Source of the DNA: Candidatus Poribacteria bacterium
Lineage (GTDB): Bacteria > Poribacteria > WGA-4E > PCPOR2b
Assembly (NCBI GenBank): GCA_965208425.1
Contig: OZ242335.1
Span: 11,018-75,017, forward strand
DNA: 64,000 bases
Direction: 5' to 3'
In this document: in pieces, positions 10,824-54,153 of the stretch
Layout of the letters: each line of letters opens with the position of its first letter
How positions within the stretch are numbered: position 1 is the first letter of the stretch
Position numbers and translations under genes: made by a program
The notes under the pieces: generated by a model
The model's input: the letters and a program-made list of their open reading frames with translations, nothing else
What the model was told of the DNA's origin: nothing
Database searches by the model: none

Positions 10824-11645
10824 CTATCGCGTCGTCAAATCGTCCTCTAAGTCATAGCCGTCGAATTGTCCCCGTTCCATACAAACAGCCATCACGAGCA
10901 TTTCCAAATCCTCTTGCCTGTGGTTGTAGATACCGTGCGATCCTCCCAGCTTGTTCGGGATAGCGTCGCCCACATGCACCTCTTCTGTTTCATCGTCCAC
11001 CGTCATTCGACCGCTGCCCGCCATGATGATGTAGGTCTCCTCTATCACGTCGTGGCGGTGGTACCCGACCGACGCACCGGGCGGGACCACGCAGTGAATA
11101 ACGAACCCCCAATTGGTTCGGAAATCCTGATGCCCCCAAACCTGTCTTATCCCTACTTTCCCTTTGCCCTCATGGACATTTGGGATAAATGTCAGTAGAT
11201 TGCGATCAAGCCGCCCAATGGGAAGTCTATCAACCGCCTCCAACGGCGCACCGACACGATCCTCCCCGAAGTCTGTGCAATCATATCCGCCCCCCGGATT
11301 TGCGACACAGAAATTCATGAACCGCGTCTCTTTGTCCGTATGATTGTAGATGGCGTGCGATTCCCCTTTTCGGCAGGGGACCGTCGCGCCTCCAACCACC
11401 TCTGCCGTTCTGCCGTTGTGAGTGAACTGTGCGGCGTTGTCCAGAATCGTGAACATCTCCTCACATTCATCGTGACGGTGATGACCAATCCCACCGCCGG
11501 GCGGCAAAATCGCATAATGGACAAACCACCAAGGCGTCTGAAAATCGCCCTCGCCCCAGAGCCCCTTAATCAAAAGATGACCTGCCCCGCCATGGACACC
11601 TTCCGACACACTCAATTCATCCCTTTGCACATGAGCAATACGCAT
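10824..11645 (-). CDS. bicupin protein (two tandem cupin domains)
   Basis: I set the start at MRIAHVQ, which follows an AAGGGGA RBS. Two copies of the G..HRH...EE.. and GESH/GGSHGIYNH motifs are present. Confidence 0.7.
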   Translation of the reverse strand: MRIAHVQRDELSVSEGVHGGAGHLLIKGLWGEGDFQTPWWFVHYAILPPGGGIGHHRHDECEEMFTILDNAAQFTHNGRTAEVVGGATVPCRKGESHAIYNHTDKETRFMNFCVANPGGGYDCTDFGEDRVGAPLEAVDRLPIGRLDRNLLTFIPNVHEGKGKVGIRQVWGHQDFRTNWGFVIHCVVPPGASVGYHRHDVIEETYIIMAGSGRMTVDDETEEVHVGDAIPNKLGGSHGIYNHRQEDLEMLVMAVCMERGQFDGYDLEDDLTTR

Positions 11646-20945: not shown

Positions 20946-21434
20946 ATGGCAGATCAATTCAGAGATTTTATATCGGTTCTTGACGCGTTTGATAGACACG
21001 AAGTAGATTACATCCTTATCGGAGGTGTTGCGATTATACTTCACGGTATGGAAAGGTTAACCCGTGACGTAGACATTTTTGTTAAGATGGATGCTGAGAA
21101 TATTGATGCACTGAGAACGGCACTTCATTCAATTTTTGATGATACTTCCATTGAAGAGATTACGCTTGAGGAATTAAATAAATATCCAGTTATTCGTTAT
21201 GGAACGCCAAATGGTTTTTGTATCGATATCATGGCACGTTTAGGTGAAACTGTCTCCTTTGAAGACTTGGAATATGAAACCATTGCTTATCAAGGTACAA
21301 AAATTAGGATTGGAACCCTAGAGACCTTATATGAACTCAAGAGAAATACTGTACGCGATAGAGATAAAATCGACGCAATATTTCTGGAACAACTAATCAA
21401 AGCAAAACAACCCAACCAGTCTAATCAGAGCTGA
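20946..21434 (+). CDS. minimal nucleotidyltransferase-fold protein (AbiEii/DUF6036-like)
   Basis: 162 aa. The signature is DYILIGGVAIILHG...TRDVDIFV. The gene is AT-richer than its neighbours. Confidence 0.55.
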   Translation: MADQFRDFISVLDAFDRHEVDYILIGGVAIILHGMERLTRDVDIFVKMDAENIDALRTALHSIFDDTSIEEITLEELNKYPVIRYGTPNGFCIDIMARLGETVSFEDLEYETIAYQGTKIRIGTLETLYELKRNTVRDRDKIDAIFLEQLIKAKQPNQSNQS

Positions 21435-21443
21435 TTTTAACTG

Positions 21444-21593
21444 GAGGCTCATGTAAAAAGAGAGTGCAAAGCACGAAGTAAAGGCCCCCTTTGTACCCCC
21501 CTTAATCCCCCCGCAAGCAGGGGGAGAGTAACCCCTGATAAATCGGGATGCAAGTGCTTGTGGCTTTGGTTGCACTAATTCTTAACATGAGCG
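21444..21593. repeat. MITE-like element, type A
   Basis: Near-identical to 1106-1256. It ends 19 nt before the ATG at 21613. Confidence 0.9.
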
Positions 21594-21612
21594 TAACTGG
21601 AAAGACAATCGT

Positions 21613-21870
21613 ATGCCAGTCTATAAATATAAAACTTTTGAAGAGGCTGAAAGTGCTTTATGGCATTTCCAACCCGATGAAGCATATTTCAATCAAGTGG
21701 CTGAACTTTGGAACTTTGCCAATAAACTCTGCCCAATTACTTATCCAAAAGGGATTTTTAAATATCGAAGCATAGAGGAAGCAAACAAACAGAGAAACGA
21801 ATGGGAGTTAGCCCATGCAAAGAAGATACAGGTGGCAAGAAAACGATTCGCAACCAAGGAGGCAAACTGA
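21613..21870 (+). CDS. hypothetical small protein
   Basis: 85-aa ORF (MPVYKYKTFEEAESALWHF...). Its stop overlaps the rhodanese start (TGATG). I recognise no domain. Confidence 0.4.
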   Translation: MPVYKYKTFEEAESALWHFQPDEAYFNQVAELWNFANKLCPITYPKGIFKYRSIEEANKQRNEWELAHAKKIQVARKRFATKEAN

Positions 21871-22349
21871 TGCAAAGATTGAACAGAGCCATTGTTTGGA
21901 TAATTGTGTTGTTCCTTCAGCAGCAATTACTCGTTCAGGTATTCGCCGCTCAAGCGGAGCGGATTGACGCGAAAGAACTTAAGCGTTTATTAGATGCCAA
22001 AGAAAAGGTAACTTTGGTTGATGTCCGTGGCCAGATTAATTACAACCTCGGACACATCCCCGGAGCCGTTTCGATGCCATTCCCGGATGGGATTGAAACG
22101 AGACATCAAACACTTCCCGCCGAAGGGCTAATTGTCTTGTACTGAAGCTGACCGGCGGAAGCCACAAGTGCCGGTGCGGCACAAATGTTAATAGACGAGT
22201 TTGGTTTTCCTCCGGAGCGCGTGAAAGTGCTCCAAGGCGGTTTTCCCGGATGGCAGAGGGCAGGCTATCCAGTTGAAATGACGGTCGCTGTTGAACCGAA
22301 AGGAAAACGCTTCACCCTGTGGGGACAGATTAAATCAAAAAGCCGGTAG
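21870..22349 (+). CDS. secreted single-domain rhodanese with two in-frame TGA codons at the C-x-C-P catalytic loop (candidate U-S-U-P selenoprotein, or a recent pseudogene)
   Basis: Signal-like N-terminus MQRLNRAIVWIIVLF..VFAAQA. The loop reads GLIVLY-TGA(22143)-S-TGA(22149)-PAEATSAGAAQML. The same frame stays open through VKVLQGGFPGWQRAGYPVE to TAG 22347-22349. Confidence 0.6.
22168..22182 (+). promoter_or_regulatory. candidate bacterial SECIS-like hairpin
   Basis: GUGCC-GGUGC-GGCAC: a 5-bp stem with a GGUGC apical loop. The loop lies 30 and 24 nt after the two TGA codons. An alternative hairpin is ACCGGC(22151)..GCCGGU(22175). Confidence 0.3.
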
Positions 22350-22364
22350 TGAGGCGTAACCCAA

Positions 22365-23867
22365 ATGAACGAATATGATCTAACCATCATCGGTGGAGGA
22401 AGCGCGGGGCTTGTGCTGGCGGTGGCGGGTGCGAAGCTAGGGGTCAAGACAGCACTCGTCGAGAAGCACCGACTGGGAGGCGATTGTCTCTGGACAGGGT
22501 GTATCCCGTCGAAAGCCATCCTCAAATCAGCGAAAATTGCCCATTATGTCAAAGAATCTGAAAAATACGGTATCCGCGTGAAAGACAATCAGGTGGACTT
22601 TGGACGCGTTATGGCGTATGTCCGTAGCACTCAACACACCATAGAGCAAGAACATGATAACCCTGAACGATTCCGCAAAATAGGTGTAGATGTTATCTTC
22701 GGGGAAGGGCATTTCGAGTCGCCTACAACCTTTGTGGTTGAAGATACAGAAAACGGCCAAACCCTCACGCTTAAGAGCAAAAAATTTGTCATCACAACCG
22801 GCTCCCGTCCAACTGCACCCGATATCCCCGGAATGGGTTCGGGCGATTATCTGGACAGCGAAAATGTTTGGGAATTAGACCAACTGCCTGAAAGGCTACT
22901 GGTGATAGGCGCAGGTCCCATTGGGATTGAGCTAGGGCAGGCGTTTCACCGTCTAGGCACAGAAGTAACGATTGCCCAACGCAGCGACCGGATCCTAGCG
23001 AAAGAGGACACCGAAGTCTCCGAGAAAATGCTGAGTTACCTTCGGGAAGATGGGGTTGAAATTCTCTTAAATACCAATCCCGTTCAGATTGACCGGATCG
23101 ATCCCTCGCTCAACGAAGAGCTCAATCCAGATATAGCGGTATGGGAACCACAAGATACCGAGGCATCGGAGTATAGGGTCCAACTCAAAGCAGCGGATAC
23201 GGGGGCTGAACGTGAAATCATCGTTGATCGCATCTTGATTGCAGCAGGACGGACGCCAAATATCGAAGGGTTGGGGCTTGAGAAGATCGGCGTCAGGGTT
23301 GGAAAAAGCGGGGTTGAGGTCAACAATAAGTTACAAACAACCGTCAAAAATATCTACGCTGCCGGCGATGTGATTGGACATTACCTCTTCACGCATGTGG
23401 CAGCATTTCAAGCGACACAGATTGTCCGGAATATCTTCTTCCCCGGTTCTAGCGCGATAAATTATTCCGTCGTCCCTTGGACTACCTTTTGCGATCCAGA
23501 GGTCGCTCGGTGCGGCTTGACTGAAGTAGAGGCTCGTGAAAAACACGGGAAGGTCGATATTTTCAGAGTGGATCTACACGATGTCGATCGCGCGGTCGCC
23601 GAAGGAGAAATGAAAGGGTTTATTAAGGTCATTGCAACCCGTTGGAAGGGCAAAATCTTAGGCGTCCACCTAGTTGGACCAAGTGCGGGAGAGGTTGTCC
23701 ACGAGTTTGTTTTGGCAATGAGTGCGGGTATCCCCCTGCGGAAGTTGGCGGGAATCATCCATGTTTATCCAACGTTTTCGAGCATCGCTTGGCGCGTTGC
23801 TGGAAAGTGGCTTGCCGAAGGCACCCTGATTCAAACACTACGCAGACTATTCAGGAAAGGCAATTAG
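22365..23867 (+). CDS. FAD-dependent pyridine nucleotide-disulfide oxidoreductase (dihydrolipoamide dehydrogenase / mercuric reductase-like)
   Basis: 500 aa. It has the GGGSAG FAD motif and the redox disulfide GGDCLWTGCIPSK. The C-terminal dimerisation domain includes HVYPTFS. Confidence 0.85.
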   Translation: MNEYDLTIIGGGSAGLVLAVAGAKLGVKTALVEKHRLGGDCLWTGCIPSKAILKSAKIAHYVKESEKYGIRVKDNQVDFGRVMAYVRSTQHTIEQEHDNPERFRKIGVDVIFGEGHFESPTTFVVEDTENGQTLTLKSKKFVITTGSRPTAPDIPGMGSGDYLDSENVWELDQLPERLLVIGAGPIGIELGQAFHRLGTEVTIAQRSDRILAKEDTEVSEKMLSYLREDGVEILLNTNPVQIDRIDPSLNEELNPDIAVWEPQDTEASEYRVQLKAADTGAEREIIVDRILIAAGRTPNIEGLGLEKIGVRVGKSGVEVNNKLQTTVKNIYAAGDVIGHYLFTHVAAFQATQIVRNIFFPGSSAINYSVVPWTTFCDPEVARCGLTEVEAREKHGKVDIFRVDLHDVDRAVAEGEMKGFIKVIATRWKGKILGVHLVGPSAGEVVHEFVLAMSAGIPLRKLAGIIHVYPTFSSIAWRVAGKWLAEGTLIQTLRRLFRKGN

Positions 23868-24101: not shown

Positions 24102-25169
24102 ATGGATGCAACCATTCAACCGATTTTGGAGAAGGTATTAGACGGTGAGCGCCTAGATTTTGATGACGGGCTGACCCTTTTCAAAAGTCATGACCTTCTA
24201 TCAATCGGAGCAGCTGCCGACACAATCCGACAACGGAAGCACCCAGAAGGATACATCACCTATATCGTTGATCGTAATATCAACTACACAAACTGGTGTT
24301 ATGTCGATTGCGACTTTTGTGCCTTTTATCGCCACAAAACTGATCCCGATGCGTATGTGATGTCCAAGGAGGAGTTGGGGAATAAAATCCGAGAGACAAT
24401 CGATCTCGGCGGTGTGCTTATCCTCATGCAGGGCGGATTACATCCCAAACTGAAACTTGACTGGTACGAAGACCTCCTCCAGTGGATCAAGGCAAATTAC
24501 AAAATCCATATTCATGGCTTTTCCCCACCAGAACTTGATTGGTTCGCCAAAATTAACAAACTCTCCCTCAAAGAGACCTTAATCCGTCTTCGCGATGCCG
24601 GCTTAGATTCGATCCCCGGCGGCGGCGCAGAGATTTTGACTGACCACGCCCGCGATGAAATTAGTCCGAAAAAATGTACATCAGATGAGTGGTTAGAGGT
24701 AATGCGTCAAGGTCACTATGTGGGCTTGCGTTCAAGCGCGACGATGATGTACGGACACGTCGAAAGCTACGGTGAGCGTGTGGAGCATCTCCTCCGCTTG
24801 CGAGAACTGCAAGACGAAACGGGCGGCTTCACAGCTTTCATCTGTTGGTCGCTTCAGCCTAAGCACACGCGCCTTGAGCATATCCCCCCCGCGGGCAGTT
24901 TTGAATACCTCAAGACACTTGCAATCTCCCGACTAATGCTCGATAACTTTGATAACTTCCAATCGTCATGGGTCACCCAAGGACCGAAGATCGGTCAAAT
25001 GTCGCTCAAGTTCGGGGCAAACGACATGGGCGGCACAATGATCGAGGAGAACGTCGTCAGCAAGGCGGGGACGGTCTACTGTATGCCCATCGAAGAAATT
25101 GAGCGCACCATCTCTGAGTTAGGGTTCGTTCCGAAGCAGCGGGACTTCTATTACGAGACCATCAACTAA
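24102..25169 (+). CDS. mqnC: radical SAM menaquinone (futalosine pathway) enzyme, MqnC-like cyclic dehypoxanthinyl futalosine synthase
   Basis: 355 aa with NINYTNWCYVDCDFCAFYR (CxxxCxxC). ILMQGGLHP favours MqnC over MqnE. GGGAEIL is also present. Confidence 0.6.
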   Translation: MDATIQPILEKVLDGERLDFDDGLTLFKSHDLLSIGAAADTIRQRKHPEGYITYIVDRNINYTNWCYVDCDFCAFYRHKTDPDAYVMSKEELGNKIRETIDLGGVLILMQGGLHPKLKLDWYEDLLQWIKANYKIHIHGFSPPELDWFAKINKLSLKETLIRLRDAGLDSIPGGGAEILTDHARDEISPKKCTSDEWLEVMRQGHYVGLRSSATMMYGHVESYGERVEHLLRLRELQDETGGFTAFICWSLQPKHTRLEHIPPAGSFEYLKTLAISRLMLDNFDNFQSSWVTQGPKIGQMSLKFGANDMGGTMIEENVVSKAGTVYCMPIEEIERTISELGFVPKQRDFYYETIN

Positions 25170-26212
25170 TGCCACTGATTCCTGCCGCCCAACTCAGAAC
25201 TATCAGCATTAATATCTTCACCGCCCTCGGTCTCAAAGCAGACAAAGCCCAAACGATCGCGAATTTACTCATCGAGTCCAATCTTGCCGGACACGATTCA
25301 CACGGTGTGCTGCGCCTACCGCAATACGTCGTGAGCATCCAGAATAAGGCAATTGATCCAGATGTCGAAATTGAGATTGTCAGCGAAACCCCTTCCAGCG
25401 CGATCATTGATGGGCATAGCGGATTGGGGCAATTCATCGCCACGCAAGCGATGGAAGTCGCCATTGCGAAAGCGCGAGAACACACCATCAGCACAGTGAA
25501 TGTCTATAACTGCAATCACGTCGGACGTCTTGCTGACTATGTGATGATGGCAGCCGAGGCAAAGATGATCGGCTTGCTTTTTCTTAACGGACATGGCGGG
25601 GACCACGGTGTTGCGCCGTGGGGTGGCACCGATCGACGACTCAGCACAAATCCCTTTGCGTGTGCCCTCCCTACAGGGAAGGACAACCCGATGGTCATTG
25701 ATCTCACCACGAGCATCGTTGCCGGCGGGAAAATTCGGGCGTATCGCAGTCGTGGCGAGCCGTTGCCAGAAGGCTGGGTCCTTGACACCAATGGTAATCC
25801 AAGCACCGATCCCAACGCATACCTTGAACATCCGCAAGGGGCGTTACTCCCATTCGGCGACATTGCAGGGCACAAAGGTTACGGGTTAAGCATGATGACA
25901 GACATTCTCGCCGGTGCGATGTGCGAAGCCGGCTGCAGTCAGTCATCACCGTCCGGTGTCGGTAACGCCTTCTTTATCATCGTCATTGACATCGAGAAAT
26001 TCATAGACCTTGCGGATTTTGAAGCGCACGTCGCCCAGATGATAGATTTCGTCAAAGCCTCTCCAACTGCACCCGGTTTCGATGAAATTTCAATCCCCGG
26101 TGAACGTTCTGCACGTACCCGCCAACAACGACTGGCAGAGGGCATCCCACTCGATGATACAACATGGGCCCGTCTTGTCGAAACCGCTCACAGCGTTGGA
26201 GTCTCTGTTTAA
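25169..26212 (+). CDS. Ldh2 family malate/L-lactate/sulfolactate-type dehydrogenase
   Basis: 347 aa. GHDSHGVLRLPQY and GHKGYGLSMM are typical Ldh_2 family segments. TAATG overlap with mqnC. Confidence 0.8.
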   Translation: MPLIPAAQLRTISINIFTALGLKADKAQTIANLLIESNLAGHDSHGVLRLPQYVVSIQNKAIDPDVEIEIVSETPSSAIIDGHSGLGQFIATQAMEVAIAKAREHTISTVNVYNCNHVGRLADYVMMAAEAKMIGLLFLNGHGGDHGVAPWGGTDRRLSTNPFACALPTGKDNPMVIDLTTSIVAGGKIRAYRSRGEPLPEGWVLDTNGNPSTDPNAYLEHPQGALLPFGDIAGHKGYGLSMMTDILAGAMCEAGCSQSSPSGVGNAFFIIVIDIEKFIDLADFEAHVAQMIDFVKASPTAPGFDEISIPGERSARTRQQRLAEGIPLDDTTWARLVETAHSVGVSV

Positions 26213-52996: not shown

Positions 52997-54004
52997 TCAT
53001 TCGCTAAAAACCTTTGTAATCTCGTCCGTCTCAAAAATAGGGAGTGGACAACGCTGGCTATCCGTCTCGATCCAGCAACCACTTTCCGGTGGTCGCAACT
53101 GACCGATAATTTGACAGGGGATATTGCGTTCAATAATCGCCGACACAATCTCGTTGCTTTTCGTGGGGTCCGCCGCAATCAGTAACGCACCAGAGGAGAT
53201 AATCCCTAGCGGATTCAGATCTAATTCATGACAGAGTTGCGCTGTTTCATCTGATATGAGTAGCGCATCTTGCCAGACAACCACCCCCAAGTTCGCAGCA
53301 TGTGCTAGCTCGTGGATGGCTGTCGCGACACCACCTTCTGTCGGATCGTGCATTGCATGGACACCACCAGTTTCAACAGCAATCAGTGCATCCTCCAGCA
53401 CTGAAATTCCCGGCGAGGTCAAATACTGCTTTGCTCGATCGAGAAAGGCGGAGGAAAACTTCGCCAATAGATCGGCTTCACACTCGCGGGCGATGATTGA
53501 CGTGGCTTCAATGCCAAGCCCTTTCGTCAATATTAGATCATCCCCCGCCTGTGCCCCCGATGACAGGATTAACTTGTCCTTGGCGACTTCACCGAGCATT
53601 TGCCCAATGACAATTGGTCTATCTAAACCGTAAGTAATCTCAGTGTGACCGCCACACAACGTAATGCCAAAATGATTACATGCGGCGTTAATTTGTTCCA
53701 TTATACGGCGAACCGACGCTTCAGTTGTCCGGTTTTCCGGTAGAAGAATTGTCGTCAACAGCCATTTTGGAACTGCCCCCATCGTTGCAATATCGTTGCT
53801 GTTGACGCAGATAAGATACCAGCCAATCTCATCGGTTGCAAAGGTAATCGGATCTGTTTTAGCAACCAGATACGATTCGCCGAAATCTATTACAGCAGCG
53901 TCCTCTCCAATTTTCGGTCCAACAATGACACGAGTATCCTGACTCGGTTGCGGTAAAAGCTGCTCCAGCAGATCAATCTTGAGTTTTCCGAGGGGCAATG
54001 CCAT
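52997..54004 (-). CDS. AIR synthase-related (PurM/HypE/ThiL superfamily) protein
   Basis: 335 aa. GEDAAVI, VAKTDPITF, NDIATMGA and GGHTE are superfamily motifs. Confidence 0.7.
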   Translation of the reverse strand: MALPLGKLKIDLLEQLLPQPSQDTRVIVGPKIGEDAAVIDFGESYLVAKTDPITFATDEIGWYLICVNSNDIATMGAVPKWLLTTILLPENRTTEASVRRIMEQINAACNHFGITLCGGHTEITYGLDRPIVIGQMLGEVAKDKLILSSGAQAGDDLILTKGLGIEATSIIARECEADLLAKFSSAFLDRAKQYLTSPGISVLEDALIAVETGGVHAMHDPTEGGVATAIHELAHAANLGVVVWQDALLISDETAQLCHELDLNPLGIISSGALLIAADPTKSNEIVSAIIERNIPCQIIGQLRPPESGCWIETDSQRCPLPIFETDEITKVFSE

Positions 54005-54018
54005 TGGTGTAAATCCTG

Positions 54019-54153
54019 TTAAGCGGTGAGGATTTTTCGACCTCTTGCACGACGTTGAGAGAGGATCTTGCGGCCATCCCGCGTAGCCATCCGTTTACGA
54101 AACCCAAACTTATTTTTTCGTTTGCGACGGTGGGGTTGATATGTACGTTTCAT
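54019..54153 (-). CDS. rpmH: 50S ribosomal protein L34
   Basis: 44 aa, absent from the track because it is under 60 aa. [44 protein letters not shown] is canonical L34. Confidence 0.95.

Follow-up and report, generated by a model that had tools for sequence, protein, structure and literature searches.

Can a single short hairpin within a coding sequence (CDS) serve two neighbouring UGA codons? The question is raised by a rhodanese gene of Candidatus Poribacteria in which two in-frame TGA codons, six nucleotides apart, occupy the catalytic loop. We analyzed this gene in a window of 64,000 nt (assembly GCA_965208425.1, contig OZ242335.1, forward-strand positions 11,018 to 75,017), the whole stretch of DNA to which the coordinates given below refer. 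An earlier inspection of its letters (hereafter the sequence-only reading) had proposed an exported rhodanese with selenocysteine (Sec, U) at both loop positions. The comparative analysis reported here leads us to lean towards the view that both UGAs would be decoded as Sec with the help of one 15-nt selenocysteine insertion sequence (SECIS), yielding a rhodanese that is exported and carries a vicinal U-x-U centre of selenols or a diselenide, and that this centre would be fixed in every sampled Poribacteria species and would have arisen again in Armatimonadota.

Reading frame, domain and genetic code

Direct translation confirmed that the open reading frame (ORF) called by the program ends at 22145 and that the same frame stays open past TGA-AGC-TGA to a TAG at 22347-49. 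The codons from the first TGA are TGA(22143-45) AGC TGA(22149-51) CCG GCG GAA GCC ACA AGT GCC, and these two TGAs are the only interruptions of the frame 21870-22349, which is translated as MQRLNRAIVW...AEGLIVLY-TGA-S-TGA-PAEATSAGAAQMLIDEFGFPPERVKVLQGGFPGWQRAGYPVEMTV...SKSR-TAG. The open frame 3' of the second TGA was therefore described correctly by the sequence-only reading, but its length was not: it holds 65 sense codons, and the figure of 66 given previously counts the stop codon. With U written as C, the Pfam profile Rhodanese (PF00581) matched residues 34-130 over profile positions 2-101 of 102, with 59 bits against a cut-off of 22.2. A single rhodanese domain therefore spans both TGAs, in agreement with the earlier suggestion that the domain is split at its catalytic loop.

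The protein begins with a hydrophobic segment, with a mean Kyte-Doolittle value of 1.99 over residues 7-26, which is kept in the Poribacteria orthologues; the Chloroflexota homologues described below likewise start with a transmembrane-like segment. This segment and its V-F-A|A site point to a protein that is probably exported or membrane-anchored.

TGA is used as an ordinary stop codon in this DNA, as had been claimed when genetic codes 4 and 25 were set aside: it ends 10 of the 43 long ORFs (at least 200 codons) of the window, including those closing at 7269-71, 12826-28 and 59014-16. A lineage in which TGA is a sense codon for Trp or Gly, as in code 4 or 25, would make any special recoding superfluous, and nothing speaks for it beyond the two in-frame TGAs themselves. 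It is contradicted by the use of TGA as a terminator in the window, by the exchange of TGA with TAA and TAG at the conserved end of the orthologues of this very gene, and by the alignment, in which the two TGA positions fall opposite Cys and not opposite Trp or Gly. Within the reach of sequence analysis this explanation is already refuted, and we give it practically no credence. A scan of the window for other in-frame TGA candidates returned only unconvincing ones.

Conservation of the gene in Poribacteria

The locus was sought in one genome per species and was present in 18 species-level Candidatus Poribacteria genomes (loci L001-L018, each about 20 kb), with protein identities of 64-96%; with the window these make 19 orthologues. 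They begin at the same Met as the window gene. Both loop positions were TGA in 19/19 sequences and never TAA or TAG, and the true terminal stop varied among the same sequences (TGA in 13, TAA in 3 and TAG in 3). In all 18 genomes the frame reads Y-TGA-AGC-TGA-[P/K/R/Q]-A-E-A-T-S... and continues with no further stop or frameshift to the conserved end at about codon 160.

About 77 database clusters with a length of exactly 91 residues (64-97% identity) were obtained in a protein search, and those among them that bear names belong to Candidatus Poribacteria. These clusters are the same rhodanese gene cut at the first TGA by gene callers; the NCBI annotation gives a 91-residue 'hypothetical protein' in every public Poribacteria genome examined. 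Two variant clusters were also seen. The sequence of P0026 (106 residues), ...GLIFYTEADRRKPQVSVRHEC, corresponds to the +1 frame over TGA-AGC-TGA, implying a deletion of 1 nt, and P0077 (133 residues) is also frameshifted and departs from the gene earlier than P0026. Both are probably assembly errors or rare pseudogenes, not the rule.

Selection was estimated by a Nei-Gojobori calculation of nonsynonymous (dN) and synonymous (dS) divergence on the 19 codon-aligned sequences. The mature N-terminal half gave a dN/dS of 0.21 (dS 0.58), and the region beyond the 13 codons that follow the second UGA gave 0.26 (dS 0.51), indicating that the part after the two in-frame stops is translated and constrained as protein. 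Within those 13 codons dS was 0.063, compared with about 0.5 elsewhere, and dN/dS is not informative there; nearly every codon is identical at the nucleotide level across genomes, which indicates an RNA-level constraint added to the coding constraint.

These data bear directly on the possibility that the gene is not read through at all, that is, that translation stops at UGA 22143-45 to leave a 91-residue fragment and that the rest is decaying or re-initiated at ATG 22185, as in a pseudogene or a split gene. Gene callers and the NCBI annotation do report the 91-residue protein, the ATG at 22185 (codon 106, alignment column 109) is conserved in 19/19 Poribacteria sequences, and P0026 and P0077 show that frameshifted variants exist. 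Against this, 18 genomes at a dS of about 0.5 carry no extra stop or frameshift and the downstream part has a dN/dS of 0.26; the internal TGAs never drift to TAA or TAG and the terminal stop does. The stretch from the second UGA to ATG 22185 keeps the frame, the length and the P-x-E-x-[ST]-S-A motif of Cys-containing homologues, and homologues in Chloroflexota and Armatimonadota have no Met at the position of ATG 22185. A split would, moreover, interrupt the domain right at the catalytic loop, which would be lost. The absence of read-through is thus very improbable, and decay, which the sequence-only reading had thought an unlikely cause of two such precisely placed codons, is excluded by the intact frames and the downstream purifying selection.

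The catalytic loop in other phyla

The genome scan that gave the Poribacteria loci also returned homologues from Chloroflexota and Armatimonadota. Cys homologues (clusters P0078, P0081, P0084 and P0088) read Y-C-S-C-P-x-E-x-[ST]-S at both TGA positions, and the DNA of loci L083-L086 has TGC or TGT codons there. Six sequences from Chloroflexota/Anaerolineae (L019, L020, L023, L024, L031 and L032) read Y-TGY-ACC-TGA-P, corresponding to a predicted C-x-U loop, and two from Armatimonadota (L035:3193-3201 and L039:10211-10219) read Y-TGA-T-TGA-R, corresponding to a predicted U-x-U loop like that of Poribacteria. The homologues form a series of C-x-C (the four Cys clusters), C-x-U (the six Chloroflexota) and U-x-U (Poribacteria and the two Armatimonadota). 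The two UGAs are homologous to cysteines of a Y-C-x-C-P-x-E-x-[ST]-S loop, which is what had been anticipated when both loop cysteines were proposed to be encoded by TGA.

Which of the two positions corresponds to the canonical rhodanese nucleophile appears ambiguous. The UGA at codon 92 follows the Tyr of a beta-strand, like the Cys of Y-C-R-G-P-type relatives. The UGA at codon 94 has the C-x5-[ST] spacing and, in a PDB sequence search that gave 1yt8 and Alr3790 as relatives, aligns with the catalytic Cys of CAGRTRS in domain 2 of 1yt8. Since codon 94 also corresponds to the Sec of the C-x-U form, the comparison suggests that it would be the catalytic position and codon 92 its partner.

A conserved hairpin downstream of the UGA codons

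Two alternative hairpins had been named in the sequence-only reading, at 22168-82 and at 22151-56/22170-75. Both exist at these coordinates, but only the first is conserved and SECIS-like. The hairpin GUGCC-GGUGC-GGCAC at 22168-82 is the consensus fold of the Poribacteria orthologues and is kept in 19/19 of them, with a stem of 5 bp (6 bp in the window sequence), a GGUGC loop and an energy of -8.0 kcal/mol. Published constraints on bacterial SECIS elements (PMC13188914, Fig. 2) are a stem of 4-16 bp, a loop of 3-9 nt with G at loop position 1 or 2, a spacing of 16-37 nt after the UGA and an energy of -7.5 kcal/mol or lower. The window hairpin lies within these ranges in stem, loop, loop G, energy and spacing; its loop begins 27 and 21 nt from the two UGAs, and the earlier remark that the spacing fits bacterial SECIS models was accurate.

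Covariation was examined in an alignment of 15 distinct sequences from Poribacteria, Chloroflexota and Armatimonadota. All 75 of the 75 cells pair in the hairpin. Double substitutions are seen in two of the five pairs, with U-A replaced by C-G in one and C-G by U-A in the other, and they occupy synonymous third positions. The covariation score was reached by none of 500 shuffles, and when the partner was slid by 1-3 columns pairing fell to 15-59%. G is invariant at loop position 2, and the next nucleotide is U in 14 of the 15 sequences. The hairpins of Chloroflexota and Armatimonadota, GCGCU-CGUGU-AGCGC or GCGCC-CGUGC-GGCGC, lie at identical codon positions. The four homologues in which both cysteines are encoded by TGC or TGT (L083-L086) served as a control: the number of paired positions in their homologous 15 nt was only 3, 4, 1 and 4, against a possible 5. 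These results support the view that the 22168-82 hairpin would behave as a bacterial SECIS.

The other hairpin, ACCGGC(22151-56)/GCCGGU(22170-75), belongs to the minimum-free-energy structure predicted for the window sequence, which is not exceptional (z = -1.75). It needs CCG at codon 95 and is lost in 7/19 orthologues, which have AAG, and was rejected as a functional element. A third, small hairpin, GGC-GGAA-GCC (22155-64), is kept within Poribacteria and not in the other phyla, and we make no claim for it.

Relation to described rhodanese selenoproteins

Rhodanese-related sulfurtransferases have been known as a bacterial selenoprotein family since 2005 (PMC1088965), and current catalogues list five rhodanese forms, among them 'form 3' (C-x-U, one Sec, NF041203) and TsoB (U-x-x-x-x-U) (PMC13188914; PMC9312934). 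The U-x-U motif itself is not new: a U-x-U rhodanese selenoprotein was described in deltaproteobacterial symbionts of Olavius algarvensis (Zhang and Gladyshev 2007, PMC1976440, Fig. 3A). The statement of the sequence-only reading that no U-x-U loop had been described in an exported rhodanese is therefore wrong for the motif, in the literature since 2007, and holds only for Poribacteria and for the exported context. The Olavius variant shares with the Poribacteria gene the motif, the protein family, a marine invertebrate symbiont as host and two UGAs one codon apart in the rhodanese loop. It differs in belonging to another phylum and in being known from metagenomic contigs, and it is likened here by motif only; later reviews list only the C-x-U form (PMC13188914; PMC9312934).

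The best curated model for the window protein, with U written as C, was NF041203 'rhodanese_LYCAU, rhodanese-related (seleno)protein', with 78.8 bits (E 3e-22). The match covers the whole domain (profile positions 5-124 of 126), and this form ('form 3', or COG0607 form 2, e.g. TKB26178.1) has the same loop layout, L-Y-[C/U]-x-U, with Sec at the second position; the Chloroflexota C-x-U homologues have the same SECIS-like hairpin at the same codon positions. The differences are that two Sec are predicted here and one is listed for the family (PMC13188914), and that the host is a member of Poribacteria. In place of the L-Y-C-x-U loop of the model the window protein would have L-Y-U-S-U, which agrees at the second position and has a UGA, not a Cys codon, at the first. 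All relatives tested scored below the cut-off of 115, the C-x-C, C-x-U and U-x-U forms together spanning 57-102 bits (69.9 for the most divergent Poribacteria orthologue, 62.7-84.7 for the Chloroflexota C-x-U and 56.9-74.1 for the Armatimonadota U-x-U proteins). By its score and its first loop position the Poribacteria rhodanese is not a strict NF041203 member; its mode of action is probably that of the C-x-U selenoproteins, with a further Sec added.

TsoB, a rhodanese/DsbD fusion (NF045694), also has a rhodanese domain with two Sec in the region of the active site. It is a 572-residue fusion, unlike the single domain of 159 codons found here, its Sec spacing (U-x-x-x-x-U) differs, and the window protein scored 31.9 bits against the NF045694 cut-off of 805. 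A parallel in gene arrangement is offered by the UXXU-type group 4 [NiFeSe] hydrogenases, in which two close in-frame UGAs precede one predicted SECIS; the study that reports them considers that both UGAs might rely on one SECIS, and Poribacteria and Armatimonadota are among the Sec-using phyla (PMC13582414). The hydrogenases are an unrelated protein family in which Sec is a metal ligand, and their UGAs are spaced as U-x-x-U (9 nt), compared with U-x-U (6 nt) in the rhodanese.

Decoding of the two UGA codons

The conserved frame, the downstream selection and the covarying hairpin make it highly probable that the gene is translated through both UGAs by the SECIS route. In the mechanism that we propose, the 22168-82 hairpin, which lies inside the CDS, would act as a bacterial SECIS and recruit SelB-GTP-Sec-tRNA(Sec) to the ribosome twice, once as UGA 22143-45 occupies the A site and a second time, two codons on, for UGA 22149-51. 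The product would be a mature protein of about 133 residues with the loop Y-U-S-U-P-A-E-A-T-S, that is, a rhodanese selenoprotein of the C-x-U type in which the neighbouring Cys has also been turned into Sec. On the outer face of the membrane, two selenols one residue apart would most likely form a nucleophile and resolving pair that operates through selenenyl-selenide or perselenide/persulfide chemistry. Sec rather than Cys at each UGA, the use of a single SECIS by both codons and this loop chemistry are what we infer from the comparison of homologues, and the balance tips modestly towards Sec at both loop positions.

To look for the Sec insertion machinery, the E. coli SelA, SelB and SelD proteins were used as tblastn queries on the window and all loci, and tRNAs were predicted with ARAGORN. 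SelA and SelB had no match in the window or the loci, and ARAGORN predicted no tRNA at all, either in the window or in L001-L018. The sole SelD-like match, at 52997-54004 (-) of the window, is a 335-residue protein of the AIR-synthase family that lacks the GxGC/UxxK N-terminus and was rejected as SelD; it scored 101 bits for HypE, 100 for ThiL and 94 for SelD, all below the cut-offs, and its gene adjoins rpmH at 54019-54153 (-). For the phylum Poribacteria it is the literature alone that supports Sec machinery. SelA and SelB are enriched in sponge symbiont bins (Slaby et al. 2017, PMC5649159), Ca. Poribacteria WGA-3G is listed with two COG1921 SelA, one COG3276 SelB and one COG0709 SelD (PMC5649159, Table S4), and Poribacteria are among nine phyla with Sec-type group 4 [NiFeSe] hydrogenases (PMC13582414, 2026). 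A literature search on selenoproteomes of sponge symbionts found nothing specific.

Several observations weigh against the proposed recoding. In E. coli fdhF the spacing between UGA and SECIS is tight, and two UGAs 6 nt apart on one hairpin would be expected to be decoded inefficiently. The stem has only 5 bp, and the isolated hairpin of L004, L008 and L017 has an energy of only -3.7 kcal/mol, short of the energy threshold. Within Poribacteria the changes in the hairpin are one-sided (C-to-U, keeping a G-U pair), these G-U variants have a weaker isolated hairpin, and compensatory changes occur only between phyla. No Rfam family matched at gathering thresholds over the window, nor at E <= 10 over 22100-22260. 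The NF041203 score of 78.8 lies below the equivalog cut-off of 115. Finally, neither the 64-kb window nor the 18 flanking loci, each about 20 kb long, contain selA, selB, selD or tRNA-Sec, a result that says little, given the small scope.

The main remaining rival is the insertion of Cys at one of the two UGAs. By the same SECIS/SelB route, one or both UGAs could be read as Cys by a tRNA of the tRNA-ReC (SelC*) type, and the product would be C-x-U, U-x-C, C-x-C or a selenium-dependent mixture. Such tRNAs decode UGA as Cys given a SECIS, and they are significantly commoner in genomes with UXXU hydrogenase motifs, including 5/5 Armatimonadota (PMC13582414), the phylum in which L035 and L039 also carry the U-x-U rhodanese; the ancestral-looking form of the loop, C-x-U in Chloroflexota, has Cys first. 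Poribacteria are, however, not among the phyla named for tRNA-ReC in PMC13582414, and the ARAGORN search of the window and L001-L018 gave no tRNA that could be of this type. A costly UGA at both sites in 18 species would also be hard to explain if only Cys were inserted, TGC and TGT being one mutation away. We consider decoding by tRNA-ReC unlikely, and retain Sec at both positions as the preferred reading.

Genomic context

The features of the locus are collected in Table 1. Ten neighbouring genes of the window recur at the Poribacteria loci with 77-100% identity, which assigns the window itself to a member of Poribacteria.

Table 1. Coordinates of the rhodanese locus in the 64,000-nt window
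Feature	Position	Strand	Remarks
Probable signal peptide or N-terminal anchor, residues 1-26	21870..21947	+	R3, R6, 20-residue hydrophobic core, V-F-A|A
Shine-Dalgarno-like GGAGG	21858..21862	+	7 nt 5' of ATG 21870; read from sequence
Predicted rhodanese selenoprotein, complete CDS	21870..22349	+	159 codons including two in-frame UGA; stop TAG 22347-49
First in-frame UGA (codon 92, predicted U92)	22143..22145	+	After beta-strand ...IVLY
Second in-frame UGA (codon 94, predicted U94)	22149..22151	+	Sec position of known C-x-U form
SECIS-type hairpin GUGCC-GGUGC-GGCAC	22168..22182	+	Apical loop starts 27 nt after first UGA, 21 nt after second UGA
Class I FAD/NAD(P) pyridine nucleotide-disulfide oxidoreductase, CLWTGC redox site	22365..23867	+	Pfam Pyr_redox_2, Pyr_redox_dim

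The disulfide oxidoreductase gene begins sixteen nt 3' of the rhodanese in the window; its product scored 478 bits with NCBIfam NF004991, below the cut-off of 620. It lies downstream of the rhodanese in 17 of the 18 Poribacteria loci, adjacent in 9 and 0.3-4.4 kb apart in 8. None was found in L018, and no such gene neighbours the homologues in Chloroflexota and Armatimonadota. A functional link between the two proteins was considered and is not claimed here. In L010 two paralogous polytopic membrane proteins (643 and 652 residues; DUF6785 and DUF6784) are encoded between the two genes on the opposite strand (L010:10543-14563, -), breaking the apparent operon, and a gap of similar size is seen in L004, L011, L013 and L014.

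Directly 5' of the rhodanese, at 20946-21870 (+), lie genes for a nucleotidyltransferase (AbiEii/DUF6036-like, 162 residues) and an 85-residue protein; the stop codon of this two-gene cassette overlaps the rhodanese start (ATGA, 21868-72). Apart from the window, the cassette occupies this position only in L001 and, in part, in L012; copies are found elsewhere in L004, L008, L013 and L014. It looks like a mobile insertion of the toxin-antitoxin type.

Further downstream, the gene at 24102-25169 (+) encodes MqnC (cyclic dehypoxanthinyl futalosine synthase; 493 bits, above the cut-off), indicating that menaquinone is made by the futalosine route, and is followed at 25169-26212 (+) by a gene of the malate/L-sulfolactate dehydrogenase family. 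Both are syntenic in nearly all Poribacteria loci.

The surroundings of the Chloroflexota homologues are different. In L019 (10324-14307, +) the genes after the C-x-U rhodanese encode DinB_2, a prenyltransferase of the UbiA family and a long molybdopterin molybdotransferase (MoeA), all confirmed by Pfam, and L020, L023, L024 and L032 have ORFs with N-termini similar to these L019 neighbours. This DinB_2/UbiA/MoeA context, unlike that in Poribacteria, is a possible hint at function.

Implications

What is new is the occurrence of the U-x-U rhodanese in Poribacteria, where the two UGAs are fully fixed, and its occurrence in Armatimonadota, together with comparative evidence for one conserved putative SECIS common to the C-x-U and U-x-U forms. 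The whole Poribacteria clade of this rhodanese escapes annotation: the nearest NCBIfam model scores it below its cut-off, and the clade is therefore missed by current pipelines.

The series from C-x-C through C-x-U to U-x-U, with one SECIS position throughout, suggests how a gene that already has a SECIS can, in steps, gain a second Sec 5' of it with the SECIS unchanged. The way in which two UGAs so few nucleotides apart could depend on a single bacterial SECIS is a question raised explicitly for the hydrogenases (PMC13582414), and the rhodanese gene, which is short, strongly conserved and easily put into a reporter, offers a clean natural case of two UGAs 6 nt apart. If the proposed decoding is right, it would be the cleanest natural system for studying how one SECIS and SelB serve two neighbouring UGAs, and a system for asking what a natural diselenide does outside the cytoplasm. 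It would also add a conserved selenoprotein to Poribacteria, a phylum of sponge symbionts, in keeping with the SelA and SelB enrichment reported for such symbionts.

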